This document shows, in pieces, positions 4,786 through 14,700 of a stretch of DNA of 57,973 nucleotides. The stretch is from an uncultured Clostridia bacterium (GTDB lineage Bacteria > Bacillota > Clostridia > Christensenellales > UBA1242): positions 1 through 57,973 of the forward strand of contig CALWEY010000088.1 of the NCBI GenBank assembly GCA_944377435.1, read 5' to 3'. How positions within the stretch are numbered: position 1 is the stretch's first letter; each line of letters begins with the position of its first letter. The notes beneath the pieces were generated by a model. That model worked only from the letters and a program-made list of their open reading frames with translations. It was not told the origin of the DNA and ran no database searches. Position numbers and translations under genes: made by a program.

Positions 4786-4983
4786 ATGAACGAAATAACT
4801 AAAGAATGGACACTTGGAGAAGTTATACAAGAAAATGAAGATCTTGCAGATGTACTAATGGGTTTTGGAATGCATTGTTTTAGTTGTCCATTAAGTCAAA
4901 TGGAAACATTAGAAGAAGCAGCCGAAGTCCATGGTGTAGATATAGATTTTTTACTAAAAAAACTAAATGAAGAAAATAAATAA
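4786..4983 (+). CDS. DUF1858 / hybrid-cluster-protein-associated redox disulfide domain protein
   Basis: TLGEVIQENEDLADVLMGFGMHCFSCPLSQMETLEEAAEVHGVDIDFLLKKLNE matches the family signature (GMHC.gCP.sqmEtLEEA...HG.D). A GGAG RBS lies upstream. Confidence 0.8.
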   Translation: MNEITKEWTLGEVIQENEDLADVLMGFGMHCFSCPLSQMETLEEAAEVHGVDIDFLLKKLNEENK

Positions 4984-5010
4984 GACATCGACGATGTCTT
5001 GTTTGTTGTT
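4982..5010 (+). terminator. Probable intrinsic terminator
   Basis: aagacat-cgacg-atgtctt hairpin followed by gtttgttgtt. Confidence 0.5.
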
Positions 5011-5419
5011 ATTTATATTAAAATACAAAAACTTTAGACTGTTAAAAAATAAGTGAGGTGAGACTTGCAAATTGTTTAAAATCAAGAGTTAAGTTTTTAA
5101 ATGACTGATTTTATACGAATTGCAGTAAAGAATGCAAAAATTTATCTTAAATTTTTAGATCGCGCAGTTTTTCGACAGTTTAAAGTTTTATTTTGTGTTT
5201 AATCTTTCGGAAATTATGGTTAAAAGATTATTGGATACGGCAAGAAAAAAAGACCTATAAGTTTGGAGCTCCTTAACTGTACATTTTTTTGAAAGTTCAA
5301 CACTGTAAAGTGTTGCCAAGGAAGTGAGTTCCTCGGGGGATAAATCTTTCATATATTATATTTATGATTAAAGTTGCAAATAAAGTGAATTGTTTGATAT
5401 ACTACCCTTAGGTGATCAA

Positions 5420-6010
5420 ATGGAAAATAATGAAAATAAAAATAAATTTATTGAACTTATAAAAAATAATATAAAACGAGAGGGAATTGATAATCTTGTA
5501 GATTGGCTTAATAAAACTGATTTCTTTACTGCACCTGCATCTACTAGATATCATTCGAACATTGAAGGTGGACTATTAGAACATACATTAAATGTTTATA
5601 ATAGGTTTTTAAAAATTCTTGAATGTGAATATGGTGAAAATTGGCAAAAGTATTGTTCGCTCGAAAGTGCAACAATAATTGCACTATTTCATGATTTATG
5701 TAAAGTTGACACATATTCAACAGAATTTAGAAATGTTAAAGAAAATGGTGCATGGGTGCAAAAACCTTACTATGTTGTAAACGATAAACTTCCTTATGGA
5801 CACGGAGAAAAATCGGTGTATATTGTAAATGGATTTATTCGACTCACTCGTGAAGAAGCTATGTGCATAAATTGGCATATGGGCGAATATGATATGCGTG
5901 CAAAAGCAGGGGTTAGTTTAACCGATGTTTACTACAAATATCCACTTGCACTTTTGTTCCATTTAGCAGATGTAGAGGCGACATATTTAGATGAAAAAAT
6001 AACCAAATAA
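5420..6010 (+). CDS. HD-superfamily metal-dependent phosphohydrolase (similar to the YhaM C-terminal domain)
   Basis: Motifs seen: STRYHSNIEGGLLEHTL, ALFHDLCKV, YGHGEKS and the HLADVEA histidine/aspartate set. The ATG at 5420 follows AGGTGA (5409-5414), and I prefer it to the tracked TTG at 5390. Confidence 0.6.
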   Translation: MENNENKNKFIELIKNNIKREGIDNLVDWLNKTDFFTAPASTRYHSNIEGGLLEHTLNVYNRFLKILECEYGENWQKYCSLESATIIALFHDLCKVDTYSTEFRNVKENGAWVQKPYYVVNDKLPYGHGEKSVYIVNGFIRLTREEAMCINWHMGEYDMRAKAGVSLTDVYYKYPLALLFHLADVEATYLDEKITK

Positions 6011-6139
6011 AAAAACTTACAAAAAACTTCGCAATACTTCGTTTACTGTGAAACGAACACACACAGTCATGTACGAAGTACACTCCTGCGAGTGTTCATT
6101 TCCCGAGCTTTGTCTTGCTGGTTTTTTGTAAGTTTTTTT
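6011..6139. repeat. Structured intergenic repeat, unit 1: a 90-nt core (6031-6120) enclosed by 17-bp perfect inverted repeats
   Basis: aaaaacttacaaaaaac (6011-6027) pairs with gttttttgtaagttttt (6121-6137). The core shares gcaatacttcgtttactg, cacagtcat, actcctgcg and tgtcttgctg with unit 2. Confidence 0.7.
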
Positions 6140-6165
6140 ATACAACTTTAACTTATTTGCTTTTT

Positions 6166-6296
6166 ATTGGCTTAAAAACAACTTATTTAAAAATTTTGCA
6201 ATACTTCGTTTACTGCATAATTTACCACACAGTCATTTAAATAACTAAACTCCTGCGTGGATAAATTATGTGAGCCGTGTCTTGCTGATGTAACAT
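6166..6296. repeat. Structured intergenic repeat, unit 2 (core 6198-6287, also 90 nt)
   Basis: It has the same conserved blocks as unit 1. Its internal 12-bp stem (cataatttaccac / gtggataaattatg) has a completely different sequence from the unit-1 stem (gaaacgaacac / gtgttcatttc) at the same position. Confidence 0.7.
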
Positions 6297-6360
6297 ATTG
6301 GCTTTAAAACCAGTTATTTGAAAATGTTGAAATACTTCGTTTGTTGTGAATTATTTACAG
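6297..6360. repeat. Structured intergenic repeat, unit 3 (5' part only, degenerate)
   Basis: attggctttaaaaccagttatttgaaaatgttgaaatacttcgtttgttg aligns with the start of unit 2 (attggcttaaaaacaacttatttaaaaattttgcaatacttcgtttactg), giving a period of 131 nt. Confidence 0.55.
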
Positions 6361-6370
6361 AATTTTACAT

Positions 6371-6403
6371 AAAAAAATAAAACCAGCACGGTTTTATTTT
6401 TTT
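6371..6403. terminator. Weak A/T-rich bidirectional terminator overlapping the dnaI stop codon
   Basis: ataaaacc-agcac-ggttttat hairpin flanked by an A7 run and a T run. Confidence 0.35.
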
Positions 6404-7317
6404 ATTAGTCTTAAATCTTTATTTTCAATATTTAAGCAAAGAGAGTTTGATTTATTTAAAAGTCTAGAAAAAATACGCTCTCCATATGTTTTTTGAATAT
6501 CTTCTGGATTTAAGTTTGTTGAAATTATAGTTTTTTTGTTATTTTCAACTCTTTCGGCGATTATGTTATATAAACCTTCAACTGTAACATTTTTTAGTAT
6601 TGGTTCAGTGCCGAGATCATCAATAAACAAATAATCGGCATCAATTAAATTTGAAATATAATCTATTTTAGTTTCATCAAAAGTTGTATGATATTTTAAT
6701 AATAATTGATTTAAGTTGAAAGCACTTGTCCAATATACTATATTTTCATTTTTAATTAAACTGTCTGCCATACATTCCATAAGATAAGTTTTTCCCACGC
6801 CTGTTTTTCCCGTTAAAATAATATTCAAATAACTTGAAGTAGGGGAGTTGCACCATTTTTGCATTGTTTGGTAAACTTGTTGCATTTTTTTATCATTATC
6901 AAAAATTTGACAGTTATTTTTATCAAAACAATTTAGTTTATGATTAAGTCCACTTTGTTTATAAAGTTCTTCGTTTATTAAATTTTTTAAACATGAACAC
7001 ATTTTGCCGTTAACATATCCTGTATCATTACATTTTTTACAACTATATTTTGGAGAAAGAGAATCTTCTTTGATATTTAATTTTTTTAAAACTTCACTTT
7101 TTTGCTTTGCTATTTTATCTAGGTTAAAGCTGTTATTTAGCCCGTAAACTTCACATCTTGCAGTTTCAATTTGTGCTTGTTTTTCGAGTTTATAAATTTC
7201 GTTAAATTCATTATTCTTAAGAGCAGATTGCAAGTTGTTATTAGCAATTAAATCGGCATTTTTTTTACTTTGTTTTATTTTTTCTAATGCTTTATTTAAA
7301 ACATTTTTGCTTATCAT
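6394..7317 (-). CDS. dnaI: Primosomal helicase loader DnaI (DnaC/IstB-like AAA+ ATPase with an N-terminal Cys-rich zinc module)
   Basis: Walker A is GKTGVGKTYL and Walker B is LFIDDLGTE. The N-terminal module is CKKCNDTGYVNGKMCSC. At 307 aa it sits directly downstream of a DnaD-domain gene, as in the B. subtilis dnaB-dnaI operon. Confidence 0.7.
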   Translation of the reverse strand: MISKNVLNKALEKIKQSKKNADLIANNNLQSALKNNEFNEIYKLEKQAQIETARCEVYGLNNSFNLDKIAKQKSEVLKKLNIKEDSLSPKYSCKKCNDTGYVNGKMCSCLKNLINEELYKQSGLNHKLNCFDKNNCQIFDNDKKMQQVYQTMQKWCNSPTSSYLNIILTGKTGVGKTYLMECMADSLIKNENIVYWTSAFNLNQLLLKYHTTFDETKIDYISNLIDADYLFIDDLGTEPILKNVTVEGLYNIIAERVENNKKTIISTNLNPEDIQKTYGERIFSRLLNKSNSLCLNIENKDLRLIKK

Positions 7318-8895: not shown

Positions 8896-10374
8896 ATGAA
8901 AAAGTTTTTGTCATTTGTTTTAATTGGTTTATCTATTTTTATTTTTGTAGGCTGTGCTAACAGCTTTGAATATAAACAGGATTTAACATCTTATAGTTTA
9001 AATCTAGTTTACGATGATAATTTGCAAACAATAGATGCAACTCAGTGTGTTGATTACATAAACACAAGTGATAATACACTCAGCGAGTTAAAATTCCACT
9101 TGTATGCAAATGCGTTTAGAGAAGGAGCAAAGGCTAATGTTGTTAGTTTAGCAAACACACAAAAAGCATATCCAAACGGCAAAAGTTATGGTAATATACA
9201 AATTGAAAGTGTAAAAATTGGTGAAAATAACATAGAATTTGTTGTTGGTGGTGAAGATGAAAATATATTAGAAGTTCCACTATCAAGCGAGTTGTATCCA
9301 AATGATAGGGTTAAAATATACATTGATTATACAGTTACACTTGCAAACATAAATCATAGACTTGGTTACGGAGAAAATGCTGTAAACTTATGTAATTTTT
9401 ATCCAATAGCATGTGTTTATGAAGATGGCGATTTTGTCTGCGACTTATATAATTCTAATGGCGACCCATTTTATAGTGAAGTAAGCAACTATGATGTTCA
9501 AATAACATACCCTAAAAATTATATTTTAGCATCTAGTGGGAACAAACTTGAAGATATAGAAAATGAAACAACAAAGACAACAAAAATAAATGCTTTTTGT
9601 GTTAGAGATTTTGGCTTGGTTTTGTCAAATAAATTTGAAACAAAAACAAAAAGATATGACGATAGAGTAAACATTAACTATTTTTATACAAGTGATGACA
9701 ATGCTGATGAGACAATGCTTTTAATAGAAAATGCGCTTAGTTTTTTTGAAGAAAAAATTGGCAAATACCCATATGAAAATATAAGCGTTGTTGAAACAAA
9801 TTTTGTCCATGGTGGCATGGAATATCCAAATTTAGTTTTAATTAGTGATGATGTTGAAGATTATGTAACATATAGAGTTGTTGTTGTTCATGAACTTTGT
9901 CATCAATGGTGGTATGGTGTTGTTGGCAATAATCAATTTGATTATGGTTGGATTGATGAAGGATTAACAGAATTTTGCACAGTGTATTTCTTTGATAACT
10001 ATCCACAGTATGAAAGAACAATGGAAAATATGATAAGATCAGCAACTTTTTCATATACAACATTTATGAAAGTGTATAGTGATGTTCAAGGGCAAGTTGA
10101 TACAAGTATGAACAGGGCGTTAGACCAATTTAACACCGAACCGGAATATGTTTATAACACATATGTAAAAGGCATGCTCATGTTTTCAACAGTTTATGAA
10201 CTTGTTGGTGCGAAGAAATTTGATAGTGCACTAAAATATTATTACACAAATAATTTATATGAAATTGTAACACCGACTGATGTGATTAAATGTTTTTCAA
10301 GAGGAACGGGTAGAAATTTAGAAAATTTATTTAATTCCTACTTAGAAGGTAAAGTTCAAATTGTTGCTAAATAA
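8896..10374 (+). CDS. M1-family zinc metallopeptidase (aminopeptidase N-like), predicted lipoprotein
   Basis: HELCHQWWYGVVGNN...WIDEGLTEF gives the HExxH-18-E gluzincin signature. The signal peptide has the lipobox FVGC. The ATG at 8896 follows AGGAGA (8887-8892). Confidence 0.75.
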   Translation: MKKFLSFVLIGLSIFIFVGCANSFEYKQDLTSYSLNLVYDDNLQTIDATQCVDYINTSDNTLSELKFHLYANAFREGAKANVVSLANTQKAYPNGKSYGNIQIESVKIGENNIEFVVGGEDENILEVPLSSELYPNDRVKIYIDYTVTLANINHRLGYGENAVNLCNFYPIACVYEDGDFVCDLYNSNGDPFYSEVSNYDVQITYPKNYILASSGNKLEDIENETTKTTKINAFCVRDFGLVLSNKFETKTKRYDDRVNINYFYTSDDNADETMLLIENALSFFEEKIGKYPYENISVVETNFVHGGMEYPNLVLISDDVEDYVTYRVVVVHELCHQWWYGVVGNNQFDYGWIDEGLTEFCTVYFFDNYPQYERTMENMIRSATFSYTTFMKVYSDVQGQVDTSMNRALDQFNTEPEYVYNTYVKGMLMFSTVYELVGAKKFDSALKYYYTNNLYEIVTPTDVIKCFSRGTGRNLENLFNSYLEGKVQIVAK

Positions 10375-11780: not shown

Positions 11781-14700
11781 ACATACTAAACATTGTGCAA
11801 AATTCAACAAATATAAAAAATGCAAGTGAATGTTTAAAAAATAACATTCGCTTGTCTTTGTCTGGAATGGGAAGTGGTGAAAAGAGTTTATTTGTTCATA
11901 GTGTCAATAAAAAAAGTATAATTGTTTGCAAAGATTTTGTTACGCTAAGCGAACTTAAAGCATCACTTATAAGTCTTGGGCACAGGGTGGGAATAATAAA
12001 CTATGGATTAAACTCTCCAATTTTTTCGTACAATCAAGACAATAGTTCTATGCTTGAATTTATATCAAACATTTTTGATTTTCACTTAAATAACATAGAT
12101 ATTTTGTTAGTTTTGTGTGAAACTTTGCTTCAAAGATTGCCAAGTAAAGAGTTTTTAAATAGTTATATAACTTTTAAAAAATCAAATGATTATAACTATC
12201 AAAATATAGAGTATACGCTTACTAAAATTGGATATAAAAGAAACGAGTATGCAACAAAAAAAGGTGAGTTTTCTGTAAGGGGAGATATCGTTGATATATT
12301 TCCAATAAATAGAGAAAATCCAATTAGACTAGATTTTTTTGGCGACAATCTTGAAAAAATATCTCAGTTTAGCGTGGATAGTATGAAATCATTTGACGAA
12401 ATGAATGAGGCAATAATATATCCAGCAACAATATTTATTTTTGATGAAAATAAAAACAAAATAATAGAAAATTTTAATAATGAAATAAAAAAAATAAAAA
12501 TAAATAATGATAATTATTCAAAAATTAATGATATAAAATCATATTATTTAGTAAATTTTGAAAATAATTCTCTGCCAATAAATAATGCTTTTATTTTACC
12601 ATTTTTTAATTTTAATGATAATATATTATCATTATTTAGTGATAATTTAATCTTTTTTGATGAACCAAAAAAGATTTTTGATGATTTTAATTTAATTTAT
12701 AACAATAATTTAGACAGCATAAATAATTTAATAAAAAATGGTGAATTGTTGCCTATTCACAGTAAATTTAATTGTGATTTAAAAGATGTTTTAAACATAA
12801 ATAATTATTGCTTATTTGATAATTATCAAAATTCGTATTTAAAAAGTGAAAAAACAATTCATTTTAGAACCATTGGCACAAGAAAATATGTTTTTGATTA
12901 TAAAGCACTTACTAGCGATATAAATATTTATTTGTCATCAAATTACAAGGTGTTTTTATTTTGCGAAACGAAAGCAAGTTTAGATAGCATAGGAACATTT
13001 TTGCTTTCTAACAATGTTAACTATCAATTAGAATTTAAAAATAACAATAAGGCGCAAGTTATTTTGCTTGAAGACTATTTGGAACTATCAGCAAGTTTTT
13101 TAGAAGTTGGTATTATTTTTATTGGCACAAACGATCTTGTAAAAAGAACAAAAAGTCAAAGCATAACCTTAAAAAAACCATCTAAATTATATTTACCTAA
13201 AATTGGTGAATATGTTGTTCATGAAATTCACGGAATTGGTAAGTGCGTAGATATAAAAAAATTAAATCTTAACGGTTTTGAAAAAGACTATTTTGTTTTA
13301 GAGTATAAAGGTGGAGATATTTTGTATGTTCCAACTGAACAAACAAACATGATTTCTGCTTTTATGGGAAGCGATAAAAAACCAACTTTAAATAAAATAG
13401 GTGGTCAAGAATTTTCAAAAATAAAAGAAAAAGTAAAACAAAGTGTTAAACAGCTTGCTTTTGATCTTTCAAAATTATATGCAGAAAGAGAAAAGTTAAA
13501 GGGGCATAGATATGAAAAAGGTTCTTATCTTATGGACGAGTTTGAAAACGCTTTTGAGTACGAACTGACATATGACCAAAATGAAGCGGTAAACGATATA
13601 AAAAAAGATTTGTATTCGTCAAAGATAATGGATAGGCTTATTTGTGGAGATGTTGGATATGGCAAAACAGAAGTGGCACTTAGGGCTGCATATCAAGTTG
13701 TTTTAGAAGGAAAACAAGTTGCCTTTTTGTGTCCAACAACAATACTATCTATTCAGCACTATAAAACAACAGTAAAACGAACAAAAGATTTTATGTGTAA
13801 TGTTCAAGTGTTAAATAGATTTAAAACAAAACAAGAGCAGACTCAAATTTTAAAAGATTTAAAAGATGGTAAAATTGATATTTTAATTGGCACGCATAGA
13901 CTACTATCTAATGATGTTGTATTTAAAGATTTAGGACTTTTAATATTAGATGAAGAGCATAGATTTGGTGTTGCCGATAAAGAAAAAATTAAAAATCTAA
14001 AAAAAGATGTAGATGTGCTTACTTTAAGTGCAACACCAATACCAAGAACTTTAAATATGGCGATGACTGGAATAAGAGATATTTCTATTATTGAAACTCC
14101 ACCTAAAAATCGTTTACCAGTGCAAACATATGTGTTGGAAGAAAGCGAAGCACTTATCGTAGATGCTTGCAATAGAGAACTTTCACGACAAGGGCAGGTT
14201 TTAATTGTTTACAACAGTGTTGAAAAAATATATGACTTTGCAAAAAAAATCGGGGAGTTGTTGCCAAATGCAAGAATTGGAGTTGCACATGGTCAAATGC
14301 CCGAAAAAATTTTAGAAGATGTCATCTTAAAACTCTACAATGGCGAGTTTGATATTTTAGTTGCAACAACACTAATAGAAAATGGTATAGATTTGCCTAT
14401 GGCAAACACTTTAATTGTAATTGATGCGGATAGACTTGGTCTTTCGCAGTTATATCAATTAAAGGGAAGAATTGGAAGAAGTGACAGACTTGCATATGCG
14501 TATTTTACTTATAATCCAGCAAAAGTACTTTCGCAAGACGCATATAAAAGGCTTGATGCTATTTTAGAGTTTACCGAGCTTGGCAGTGGATTTAAGATTG
14601 CAATGCGAGACTTGGAAATTAGAGGCGCAGGCAATGTGCTTGGCAAAGAACAACATGGGCATATGGAGAAAGTTGGATATGAAATGTATTGCAAACTTCT

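Follow-up and report, generated by a model that had tools for sequence, protein, structure and literature searches.

Two structured units in a convergent intergenic spacer

The stretch of DNA analysed here, called the window, consists of 57,973 nucleotides (nt), positions 1-57,973 of contig CALWEY010000088.1 from an uncultured Clostridia bacterium of the order Christensenellales; the source assembly holds 1.15 Mb in 97 contigs and has a GC content of 28.7%. Our subject is a hairpin-forming element, two units of which occupy the spacer between a plus-strand gene of 206 amino acids (aa; 5390-6010) and a convergent dnaI-like gene (6394-7317, minus strand). An earlier note, made from the letters of this stretch alone, had described the spacer as about 2.5 tandem copies of a 130-nt element whose stems differ in sequence and still pair. 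That observation is real and far beyond chance, and the units belong to a dispersed family of structured repeats that stands at the ends of genes. The features of the locus are the following.

6007-6141, minus strand: unit 1, an intact copy, core 6019-6126 (covariance-model matches of 113.5 and 102.1 bits)
6007-6027 and 6121-6141: outer stem of unit 1, an inverted repeat of 21 nt, 100% complementary
6031-6037/6112-6118 (plus-strand coordinates): P1 of unit 1
6050-6060/6092-6102 (plus-strand coordinates): P2 of unit 1
6062-6066/6086-6090 (plus-strand coordinates): P3 of unit 1
6067-6070/6082-6085 (plus-strand coordinates): tandem G.A loop of unit 1
6071-6074/6078-6081 (plus-strand coordinates): P4 of unit 1
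6186-6293, minus strand: unit 2, an intact core with a different subfamily of stem (covariance-model matches of 96.9 and 84.0 bits)
6198-6204/6279-6285, 6216-6228/6258-6270 and 6228-6232/6253-6257: P1, P2 and P3 of unit 2
6296-6346, minus strand: truncated unit 3 (from direct-repeat families D1 and D2 and the sequence)
5049-5148, plus strand: a decayed copy with several broken pairs (covariance-model match of 44.8 bits, E = 2.4e-9)
5390-6010, plus strand: upstream HD-like gene, 206 aa (from the list of open reading frames)
6369-6405, minus strand: ordinary intrinsic terminator of the convergent dnaB/dnaI-like operon (inverted repeat I2)

The four blocks that the two units were said to share at fixed positions are present in both. 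In unit 1 they read gcaatac (6031-6037), cacag/tcat (6062-6070), actc/ctgcg (6082-6090) and gtcttgc (6112-6118), and in unit 2 they lie at 6198-6204, 6228-6236, 6249-6257 and 6279-6285. The stems between them differ and yet pair, with gaaacgaacac/gtgttcatttc in unit 1 and cataatttaccac/gtggataaattatg in unit 2. What had been taken for a 17-bp clamp around unit 1 is actually a perfect inverted repeat of 21 bp, and the stop codon of the upstream gene (TAA, 6008-6010) lies inside this outer stem, as its first element. Unit 2 is without an A/T outer stem. The segment 6005-6145 containing unit 1 folds with -48.1 kcal/mol (z = -8.1); with 40-nt flanks, unit 1 yields -57.9 kcal/mol on the minus strand and -48.7 on the plus strand. 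The minus-strand fold of unit 2 has -30.1 kcal/mol (z = -5.2), and folding z-scores as a whole range from -2.6 to -8.1.

The spacing of the units is 167 and 131 nt, and Tandem Repeats Finder called no array in the window. The third, truncated unit also exists, in a more modest form than had been supposed: it consists of a spacer repeat (6296-6328, 87% identical to 6165-6197) and only the first 18 nt of the element (6329-6346; gaaatac ttcgtttgttg), the remainder being missing, and the covariance model finds no match in it. The decayed copy at 5049-5148 has the opposite orientation and stands away from any stop codon, between the terminator of a DUF1858 gene (4975-5007) and the HD-like gene.

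The paired structure is under selection

A covariance model was built from nine copies of this genome after a search with the core motif. When RNAalifold was applied to a plain MAFFT alignment of these nine copies, which is independent of the model, it gave one unbranched rod of 40 pairs, 24 of them with compensatory changes. From relatives, 126 distinct copies were available for covariation. In their alignment, which was fitted to the model and therefore leans towards pairing, 94.0% of the cells are standard pairs. In shuffles the value is 68%, and 0 of 500 shuffles reach the observed one; when the partners are slid, 30-44% of cells remain paired. Both sides have changed in 36 of the 40 pairs. 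The structure is under selection, as had been argued from the two units alone. Scanning this genome and its relatives with the model uncovered many more copies and homologues, and the compensatory changes that these further copies carry in their stems do not support the idea that the two stems of the window are coincidental.

Viewed on the minus strand of the window, the rod begins with P0, a stem formed by an A-tract and a T-tract and starting within the stop codon, and continues with P1 (7 bp), which has a G.A mismatch that is conserved. Between P1 and P2 lies an asymmetric loop, AAGGCUCG / CAGUAAACGAA, which is invariant. P2 is a helix of 11-14 bp whose sequence is hypervariable and whose pairing is kept. 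P3 is near-invariant (CGCAG/CUGUG, with a G.U pair); after it come tandem G.A/A.G pairs, a further G.U pair and P4, a short variable hairpin. The core measures about 108 nt, and with its outer stem the whole rod reaches about 150 nt. Beyond P0 most copies possess an extra stem of 10-25 bp that is specific to the locus or subfamily (mean extension 11 bp), and the hairpin ends most often with AA/TT (51 of 120). Whole rods fold with -40 to -78 kcal/mol.

On two points this comparison leads away from the earlier note. There, the difference between the two stems was read as wholesale stem replacement; the stems are instead two subfamilies that recur at other loci, that of unit 1 in contigs C12 and C70 of this assembly and that of unit 2 in C15 and C67. 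The note had also set the element apart from MITEs (transposable elements of miniature size with inverted repeats) and repetitive extragenic palindromic (REP) sequences, and the element is itself a dispersed, proliferating repeat family of that general kind.

Distribution of the family

This genome contains 17-18 matches to the element, mostly as head-to-tail pairs or triplets. Several contig ends fall in or beside copies (for example C81:1-100, C91 ~2350-2620, C96:1 and C43:38), which implies that the assembly breaks at the repeat and that the count of 17-18 must be taken as a minimum. In the same genus 19 genomes were searched, and every one has matches (4-39 per genome); one other genus of the family has 26, and several further genera together with two other families of the order have 1-5 per genome; most other families of the order gave no match. 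A pattern scan of species-representative genomes led to metagenome-assembled genomes (MAGs) named 'uncultured Clostridia bacterium' or 'Christensenella sp. UBA1242/UBA5893', from animal gut and rumen.

The statement that the element belongs to no named RNA family stands. Rfam gave 0 matches at the gathering score over the whole window and none at a second copy-rich locus. At E<=10 the region drew weak, below-threshold matches only, to microRNA precursor models on the element and to small-RNA models on the dnaI terminator. A limited literature search also found nothing, and the family is apparently undescribed. A phage origin was considered because of 11 exact core matches in viral contigs and rejected: these are chance matches, of which the covariance model finds 0 of 11.

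Copies abut gene ends with one polarity

Placement was determined for 127 unique copies. In 62 of these, a convergent open reading frame (ORF) ends close to the 3' end of the modelled strand, its stop codon being at a distance of -18 to +11 nt (most often 7-8 nt); in 1 copy a stop codon abuts the opposite end. The other copies mostly stand second or third in an array. In gene orientation, then, it is the reverse complement of the modelled strand that stands directly 3' of the stop codon, and the outer stem begins within that codon, as in GGC-T[AAAAGACT..., TGT-TG[AAAAAACA... or AAA-TAA within AAATAACAAAAAAAGAGC. At tRNA genes, none of which (nor any tmRNA gene) is present in the window, copies abut the 3' (CCA) end with the polarity seen at protein genes. 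The polarity is also kept in the low-copy genomes of other genera, where copies follow typA, gap, rpsG and queA. About half of the arrays lie between convergent genes, compared with 28% of all gene ends in this genome. Between 31 and 33 of 34 element-bearing genes are on the G-rich, presumably leading strand, compared with 78% of all genes, and polarity with respect to transcription is therefore not fully separable from polarity with respect to replication.

A link to the HD gene as such, which had been suggested, did not survive this comparison. The element also follows ppdK, fusA, rpsG, rplA, rpsR, tRNA genes and others; the protein genes concerned, ychF, spoIVA and cls among them, are ordinary housekeeping genes. 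Homologues of the HD-like gene at 41-73% identity are without the element; the array at this gene is a genus-level acquisition. The product of the gene matches TIGR00277 (HDIG) with E = 0.003, below the cut-off, and a Pfam search of it gave no match.

The element in the position of the intrinsic terminator

Among the copies of the relatives, 53 follow a gene that has an orthologue in this genome. The orthologous site here is filled in 18 of the 53 cases and empty in 35. Ten empty sites were inspected. Most of them contain a short ordinary terminator, in which an A-tract overlapping the stop codon is followed by a stem of 5-7 bp and a T-tract; the exceptions are fusA-tuf, without an obvious terminator, and C70:13177, where the inner hairpin of the element is followed by a T-run. 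After the cardiolipin-synthase gene, at C70:13217-13266, the inner hairpin (distal P2, P3 and P4) stands alone with A- and T-runs directly flanking it, and the nearest relative has a full copy and an inner-deleted copy at the cardiolipin-synthase site.

The element itself has the position of an intrinsic terminator at gene ends and its succession of a hairpin and a U-tract, with a stem far longer than usual. Of 123 copies, 89 have a T-run of at least 4 after the hairpin when read in the mRNA sense and 76 when read in the antisense, which is the design of a bidirectional terminator. The composition of the flanks, counted in the mRNA sense over 16 nt per side, depends on context. In 106 copies outside operons the 5' flank has on average 7.4 A and 3.5 T and the 3' flank 2.2 A and 8.5 T. 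The 12 copies that lie within the str operon, between rpsG and fusA, show the reverse arrangement of tracts (5' flank 8.1 T and 4.2 A, 3' flank 7.5 A and 5.3 T), so that a U-tail is present in neither direction. No other observation argues as strongly as this dependence on transcriptional context that the flanks really terminate transcription and are selected for doing so; at the same time, the rpsG-fusA copies show that the core can persist without termination.

The rpsG-fusA spacer (C67:3585-4010 and the orthologous L044, L051, L053, L086, L107 and L112) has an unusual length of 380-708 nt, as against 190 nt in one locus that lacks the element. It contains one intact element and varying numbers of whole and broken copies, and a promoter-like stretch and a small hairpin precede fusA.

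We favour, with no more than even confidence, the reading that a dispersed structured palindromic repeat has been co-opted as a bidirectional terminator or as a hairpin that protects gene ends. The family would have occupied the intrinsic-terminator slot at gene ends in small-genome gut Clostridia, represented by MAGs of the Christensenellales type. Transcription of an upstream gene would pass from the stop codon directly into the element, and the transcript would fold into a long hairpin followed by a U-run, by which it would be ended and then protected. Since A/T tracts stand on both flanks, polymerases arriving from the other side should experience the same effect. In the window, the gene served would be the HD-like one, which the element would also guard against transcription reading through from the dnaB/dnaI-like operon.

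That operon ends in an ordinary terminator with a perfect AT-rich stem of 16 bp, overlapping the stop codon of the dnaI-like gene (6394-6396). Such ordinary terminators take the form, in this genome, of long AT-rich palindromes with perfect pairing and an A-tract arm that overlaps the stop codon, the same layout as in the repeat family. Besides window 6369-6405, they are found at C12:15465-15510, C23:6906-6940, C36 ~14060-14108 and C44 ~9226-9280.

The better fold is on the strand opposite the mRNA

Several observations weigh against termination as a full account of the element. The antisense strand, which is the minus strand in the window, is the more stable in 119 of 123 copies, with a mean of -46.6 kcal/mol as against -35.8 in the mRNA sense. 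If termination were the sole role, the mRNA-sense hairpin should be the optimised one, and it is not. Four near-invariant G.U pairs, the tandem G.A pairs and the G.A mismatch of P1 turn into A.C and pyrimidine-pyrimidine mismatches in the mRNA. On the folded strand, G.U outnumbers A.C in the variable helices by 102:53, or by 73:30 in the helices of a set made non-redundant at 85% identity (108:30 with one further pair), and purine-purine mismatches outnumber pyrimidine-pyrimidine ones by 165:32. Terminators of Bacillus cereus, on the other hand, prefer G.U on the transcribed strand, 89.5% vs 10.5% (PMC5381666). The asymmetry is also present in the operon-internal rpsG-fusA copies, and the mutational bias that is expected, cytosine deamination on the sense, leading strand, would probably push the opposite way. 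The internal loops are invariant, and a plain terminator would not need them. Finally, no transposase partner was found and no target-site duplication was established. A terminator model leaves unexplained why the loops are invariant, why the polarity is near-absolute and why the antisense strand pairs better, and this keeps mobility or an antisense-RNA function in consideration.

One way to accommodate these observations is a strand-specific folded nucleic acid with a dedicated partner, in which the loops, the G.U and the G.A pairs are read on the antisense strand and the element is either mobile or an antisense RNA. We think this unlikely. If it were true in its first version, the element would be a new kind of mobile element, homing to the junction of stop codon and terminator through a single-stranded intermediate; in its second version it would represent a type of antisense RNA that is widespread at gene ends. 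Either version would account jointly for the near-absolute polarity, the location of the newest copy beside the gene and the strand asymmetry.

The antisense-RNA version takes a more definite form if the copies are small-RNA genes, or give rise to processed antisense RNAs from the minus strand, with the invariant loops, including a Shine-Dalgarno-like AGGAG, as functional sites. Of the explanations considered here this seems to us the least probable. It agrees with the fact that the minus strand has the better RNA fold, with G.U and tandem G.A pairs. In one other genus, moreover, a tRNA-Gly/Cys/Leu operon of the same orientation follows 12 nt downstream of the folded strand, which is probably co-transcribed with it, and the units of the window are downstream of the dnaI-like gene on the same strand. 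The terminator of that gene, however, precedes the units, and a source of transcription is hard to identify in general: across 120 upstream regions there is no position-specific enrichment of a -10 sequence, the window region has 9 promoter-like sites where 9.6 are expected, and the upstream neighbour on the folded strand is co-oriented in 52 cases and divergent in 51. An RNA gene would also have no cause to end so near a stop codon, at 11 nt or less, as happens 62 times, and copies inside the str operon are antisense to it. Coding potential was rejected on inspection, as the minus-strand AGGAG with an AUG opens frames of 17 aa and 4 aa, differing between the units because P2 varies.

Alternatively, the sense strand may hold the function, as an RNA element of the 3' untranslated region (UTR) or of the intercistronic region. 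The conserved internal loops would then be the functional part and the mismatches deliberate, and the loops would bind a protein, a nuclease or ribosome-binding sites and so set mRNA stability or translation. In the mRNA sense they read UUCGUUUACUG/CGAGCCUU and CACAGUCAU/ACUCCUGCG, the latter with an anti-Shine-Dalgarno-like CUCCU. The mRNA-sense transcript is the only one that must exist; invariant nucleotides in loops between covarying helices are the usual look of a functional RNA motif; and the element is kept between rpsG and fusA across genera without terminator tracts. A precedent is the 3'-UTR anti-Shine-Dalgarno motif of Staphylococcus aureus icaR (PMC3868564). Against this stand the excess of A.C mismatches over G.U wobbles in the variable helices of the mRNA, the opposite of selection for sense pairing (PMC5381666), the lack of any known partner, and the occurrence of identical stems after unrelated genes, which leaves no gene-specific pairing. 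We consider this explanation distinctly unlikely. Gene-specific pairing of the variable stem was rejected on the same grounds, since identical stems follow unrelated genes.

Spread and turnover of copies

Copies that follow three unrelated genes (C59, C19 and C70) are about 90% identical over 176-255 nt, spacer and half copy included. At one locus, different subfamilies are present in different species. Arrays include fragments, and their most intact copy is the one nearest the gene. The nearest genome (85-90% DNA identity) has almost all occupied loci in common with this one, which suggests slow turnover. A clean junction between filled and empty sites was not recovered, the intergenic DNA being too diverged even against that nearest genome, and flanking TA or AT dinucleotides are indistinguishable from an extension of the inverted repeat, with no consistent direct repeat seen. 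A parent insertion sequence with matching ends was not noticed, although no search was aimed at one. We infer that copies spread by transposition or by ectopic gene conversion, and that the invariant loops may have a sequence-specific partner.

These data may be examined in the light of a further explanation, in which the structure serves its own propagation. An enzyme such as a recombinase or transposase would recognise the bottom strand (antisense to the gene) in a single-stranded form, either DNA or RNA, and insert copies in one orientation at the stop-codon-proximal junction, with termination as a by-product; the logic would resemble bottom-strand recombination of integron attC sites or the IS200 and REP-RAYT (REP-associated tyrosine transposase) systems. 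We judge it improbable, on a par with the general case of a dedicated partner. It is consistently the bottom strand that pairs better, and non-Watson-Crick positions are conserved in it; the strict polarity with its junction at the stop codon would be expected. So would arrays with the most intact copy beside the gene and decayed copies farther out, different subfamilies at one locus in different species, an occupancy that is polymorphic between species, and near-identical copies at unrelated loci. However, no partner enzyme was found among those tested, the Y1 transposase and the integron integrase. The IS200-type Y1 transposase (PF01797) occurs in 7 of 19 other genomes of the genus and is absent from the sister genus with 26 copies, absences that are weakened by the incompleteness of MAGs, and the hairpins at its ends are unrelated to the element. 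A RAYT/IS200 partner was accordingly rejected, the Y1 transposase being patchy and syntenic as well. For the integron integrase (TIGR02249), the best score among the four full-length ORFs of six tyrosine-recombinase ORFs found was 66 bits, as against a cut-off of 265, and the ends of the element are A/T tracts without attC core sites. Occupancy is mostly common to the nearest relative, so that movement must be slow, and where the gene is on the leading strand, its bottom strand serves as the template of leading-strand synthesis, the one of the two that is exposed less in single-stranded form.

The single IS200-type Y1 gene of this genome (153 aa; C48:5079-5435, L139) is syntenic in a second species (G001 C3, L140), has no element nearby and is flanked by GC-rich hairpins; it may be domesticated or ancient.

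Comparison with known systems

Integron attC sites lie after or overlap the preceding stop codon in one orientation, have 57-141 nt and are active as the folded bottom strand; their ends are conserved, and the central part varies in sequence yet keeps its pairing. The element differs in having A/T-tract ends without R''/R' core sites and no integron integrase, and the genes that precede it are essential housekeeping genes scattered over the chromosome rather than cassettes. Identity with attC was rejected, there being neither IntI nor core sites. Ordinary bidirectional intrinsic terminators have in common with the element an A-tract, a hairpin and a T-tract directly after the stop codon, often between convergent genes. 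Their sequences, however, are mutually unrelated and their stems have 5-15 bp, whereas copies of the element share a homologous 108-nt core and invariant loops, and the element also occurs inside an operon with its tracts swapped.

The nearest known analogue is the pneumococcal SPRITE, followed more loosely by REP elements and structured MITEs, with attC comparable in logic only. SPRITE is likewise found interspersed in a Bacillota genome and is about 105 nt long, with AAAA/TTTT ends, located near the 3' ends of coding sequences and enriched between convergent genes (PMC3049150). Like the element, it has A-run and T-run termini, tens of copies per genome and a long stem before a U-rich tract, co-option as a terminator has been proposed for it, and neither a target duplication nor a transposase was identified (PMC3049150). 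The likeness is one of working rather than of membership; the lineage is another (the element is found in Clostridia), and homology is unlikely given the different class. The SPRITE duplex has 18 bp, as against at least 40 pairs in the element, where covariation is strong and two internal loops are invariant as well. The orientation of SPRITE does no more than reflect coding bias (63% leading strand; PMC3049150), in contrast to the 62:1 polarity found here, where the hairpin starts inside the stop codon and the strand opposite the mRNA pairs better.

REP sequences and their mosaics (bacterial interspersed mosaic elements), which together with RAYT form REPtrons, are likewise extragenic palindromes at gene ends, often clustered, non-autonomous, and with effects on termination and mRNA stability. 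They differ in being GC-rich, 20-40 nt long and arranged in clusters of alternating orientation around a Y1-transposase gene; the element has 108-150 nt, is AT-rich, forms head-to-tail arrays and is not tracked by the Y1 transposase. Structured MITEs (Correia/NEMIS, ERIC/IRU, Bacillus bcr1, RUP/BOX) have 100-170 nt and terminal inverted repeats, and form long hairpins when transcribed. They share with the element orientation-dependent effects on neighbouring transcripts and presence or absence between relatives. MITEs have defined target duplications (often TA), both orientations and varied distances to genes; in the element, position and polarity are fixed relative to the stop codon and no duplication was established. 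This comparison draws in part on PMC3184786 and PMC3049150. Terminal inverted repeats, as expected of a MITE, are present here too (for example AAATAACAAAAAAAGAGC / GCTCTTTTTTTGTTATTT), and the empty orthologous sites (35/53) together with the ~90%-identical copies at different loci are as in a MITE.

The family supplies the gene-end hairpin of many housekeeping genes (ppdK, fusA, rpsG, rplA and tRNA genes among them) in abundant uncultured gut Clostridia. Annotation should treat its sites as members of one family; they are also places where assemblies tend to break. The family also presents a testable puzzle, in that the element stands at the position of the mRNA terminator, although pairing is better on the complementary strand and two internal loops do not vary. 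An answer would tell whether gene-end repeats of this kind are co-opted junk, a targeted mobile element or a regulatory RNA.

Other repeats in this genome

Another family of repeats, about 130 nt long and with the pattern GGGGNCCCC-AAAAGT...ACTTTTTGGGGAGAGGAAAAACSGAGCGA...TTTGC..GCAAATT...TTTTGACGA, has at least 4 copies and no Rfam match. Its sites are C70:41495-41640 (L036 ~1700-1860), C33 ~9620-9750, C8 ~22148 and C90 ~26114, and two of its copies are nested inside copies of the hairpin element. At C15:5350-6000, two copies of the element lie within a tandem repeat of 289 nt, the other 180 nt of which are also conserved (...CTCGCTTCCGTTCTTATCTCGC...AACTTGGAGATTATAAAAG...).

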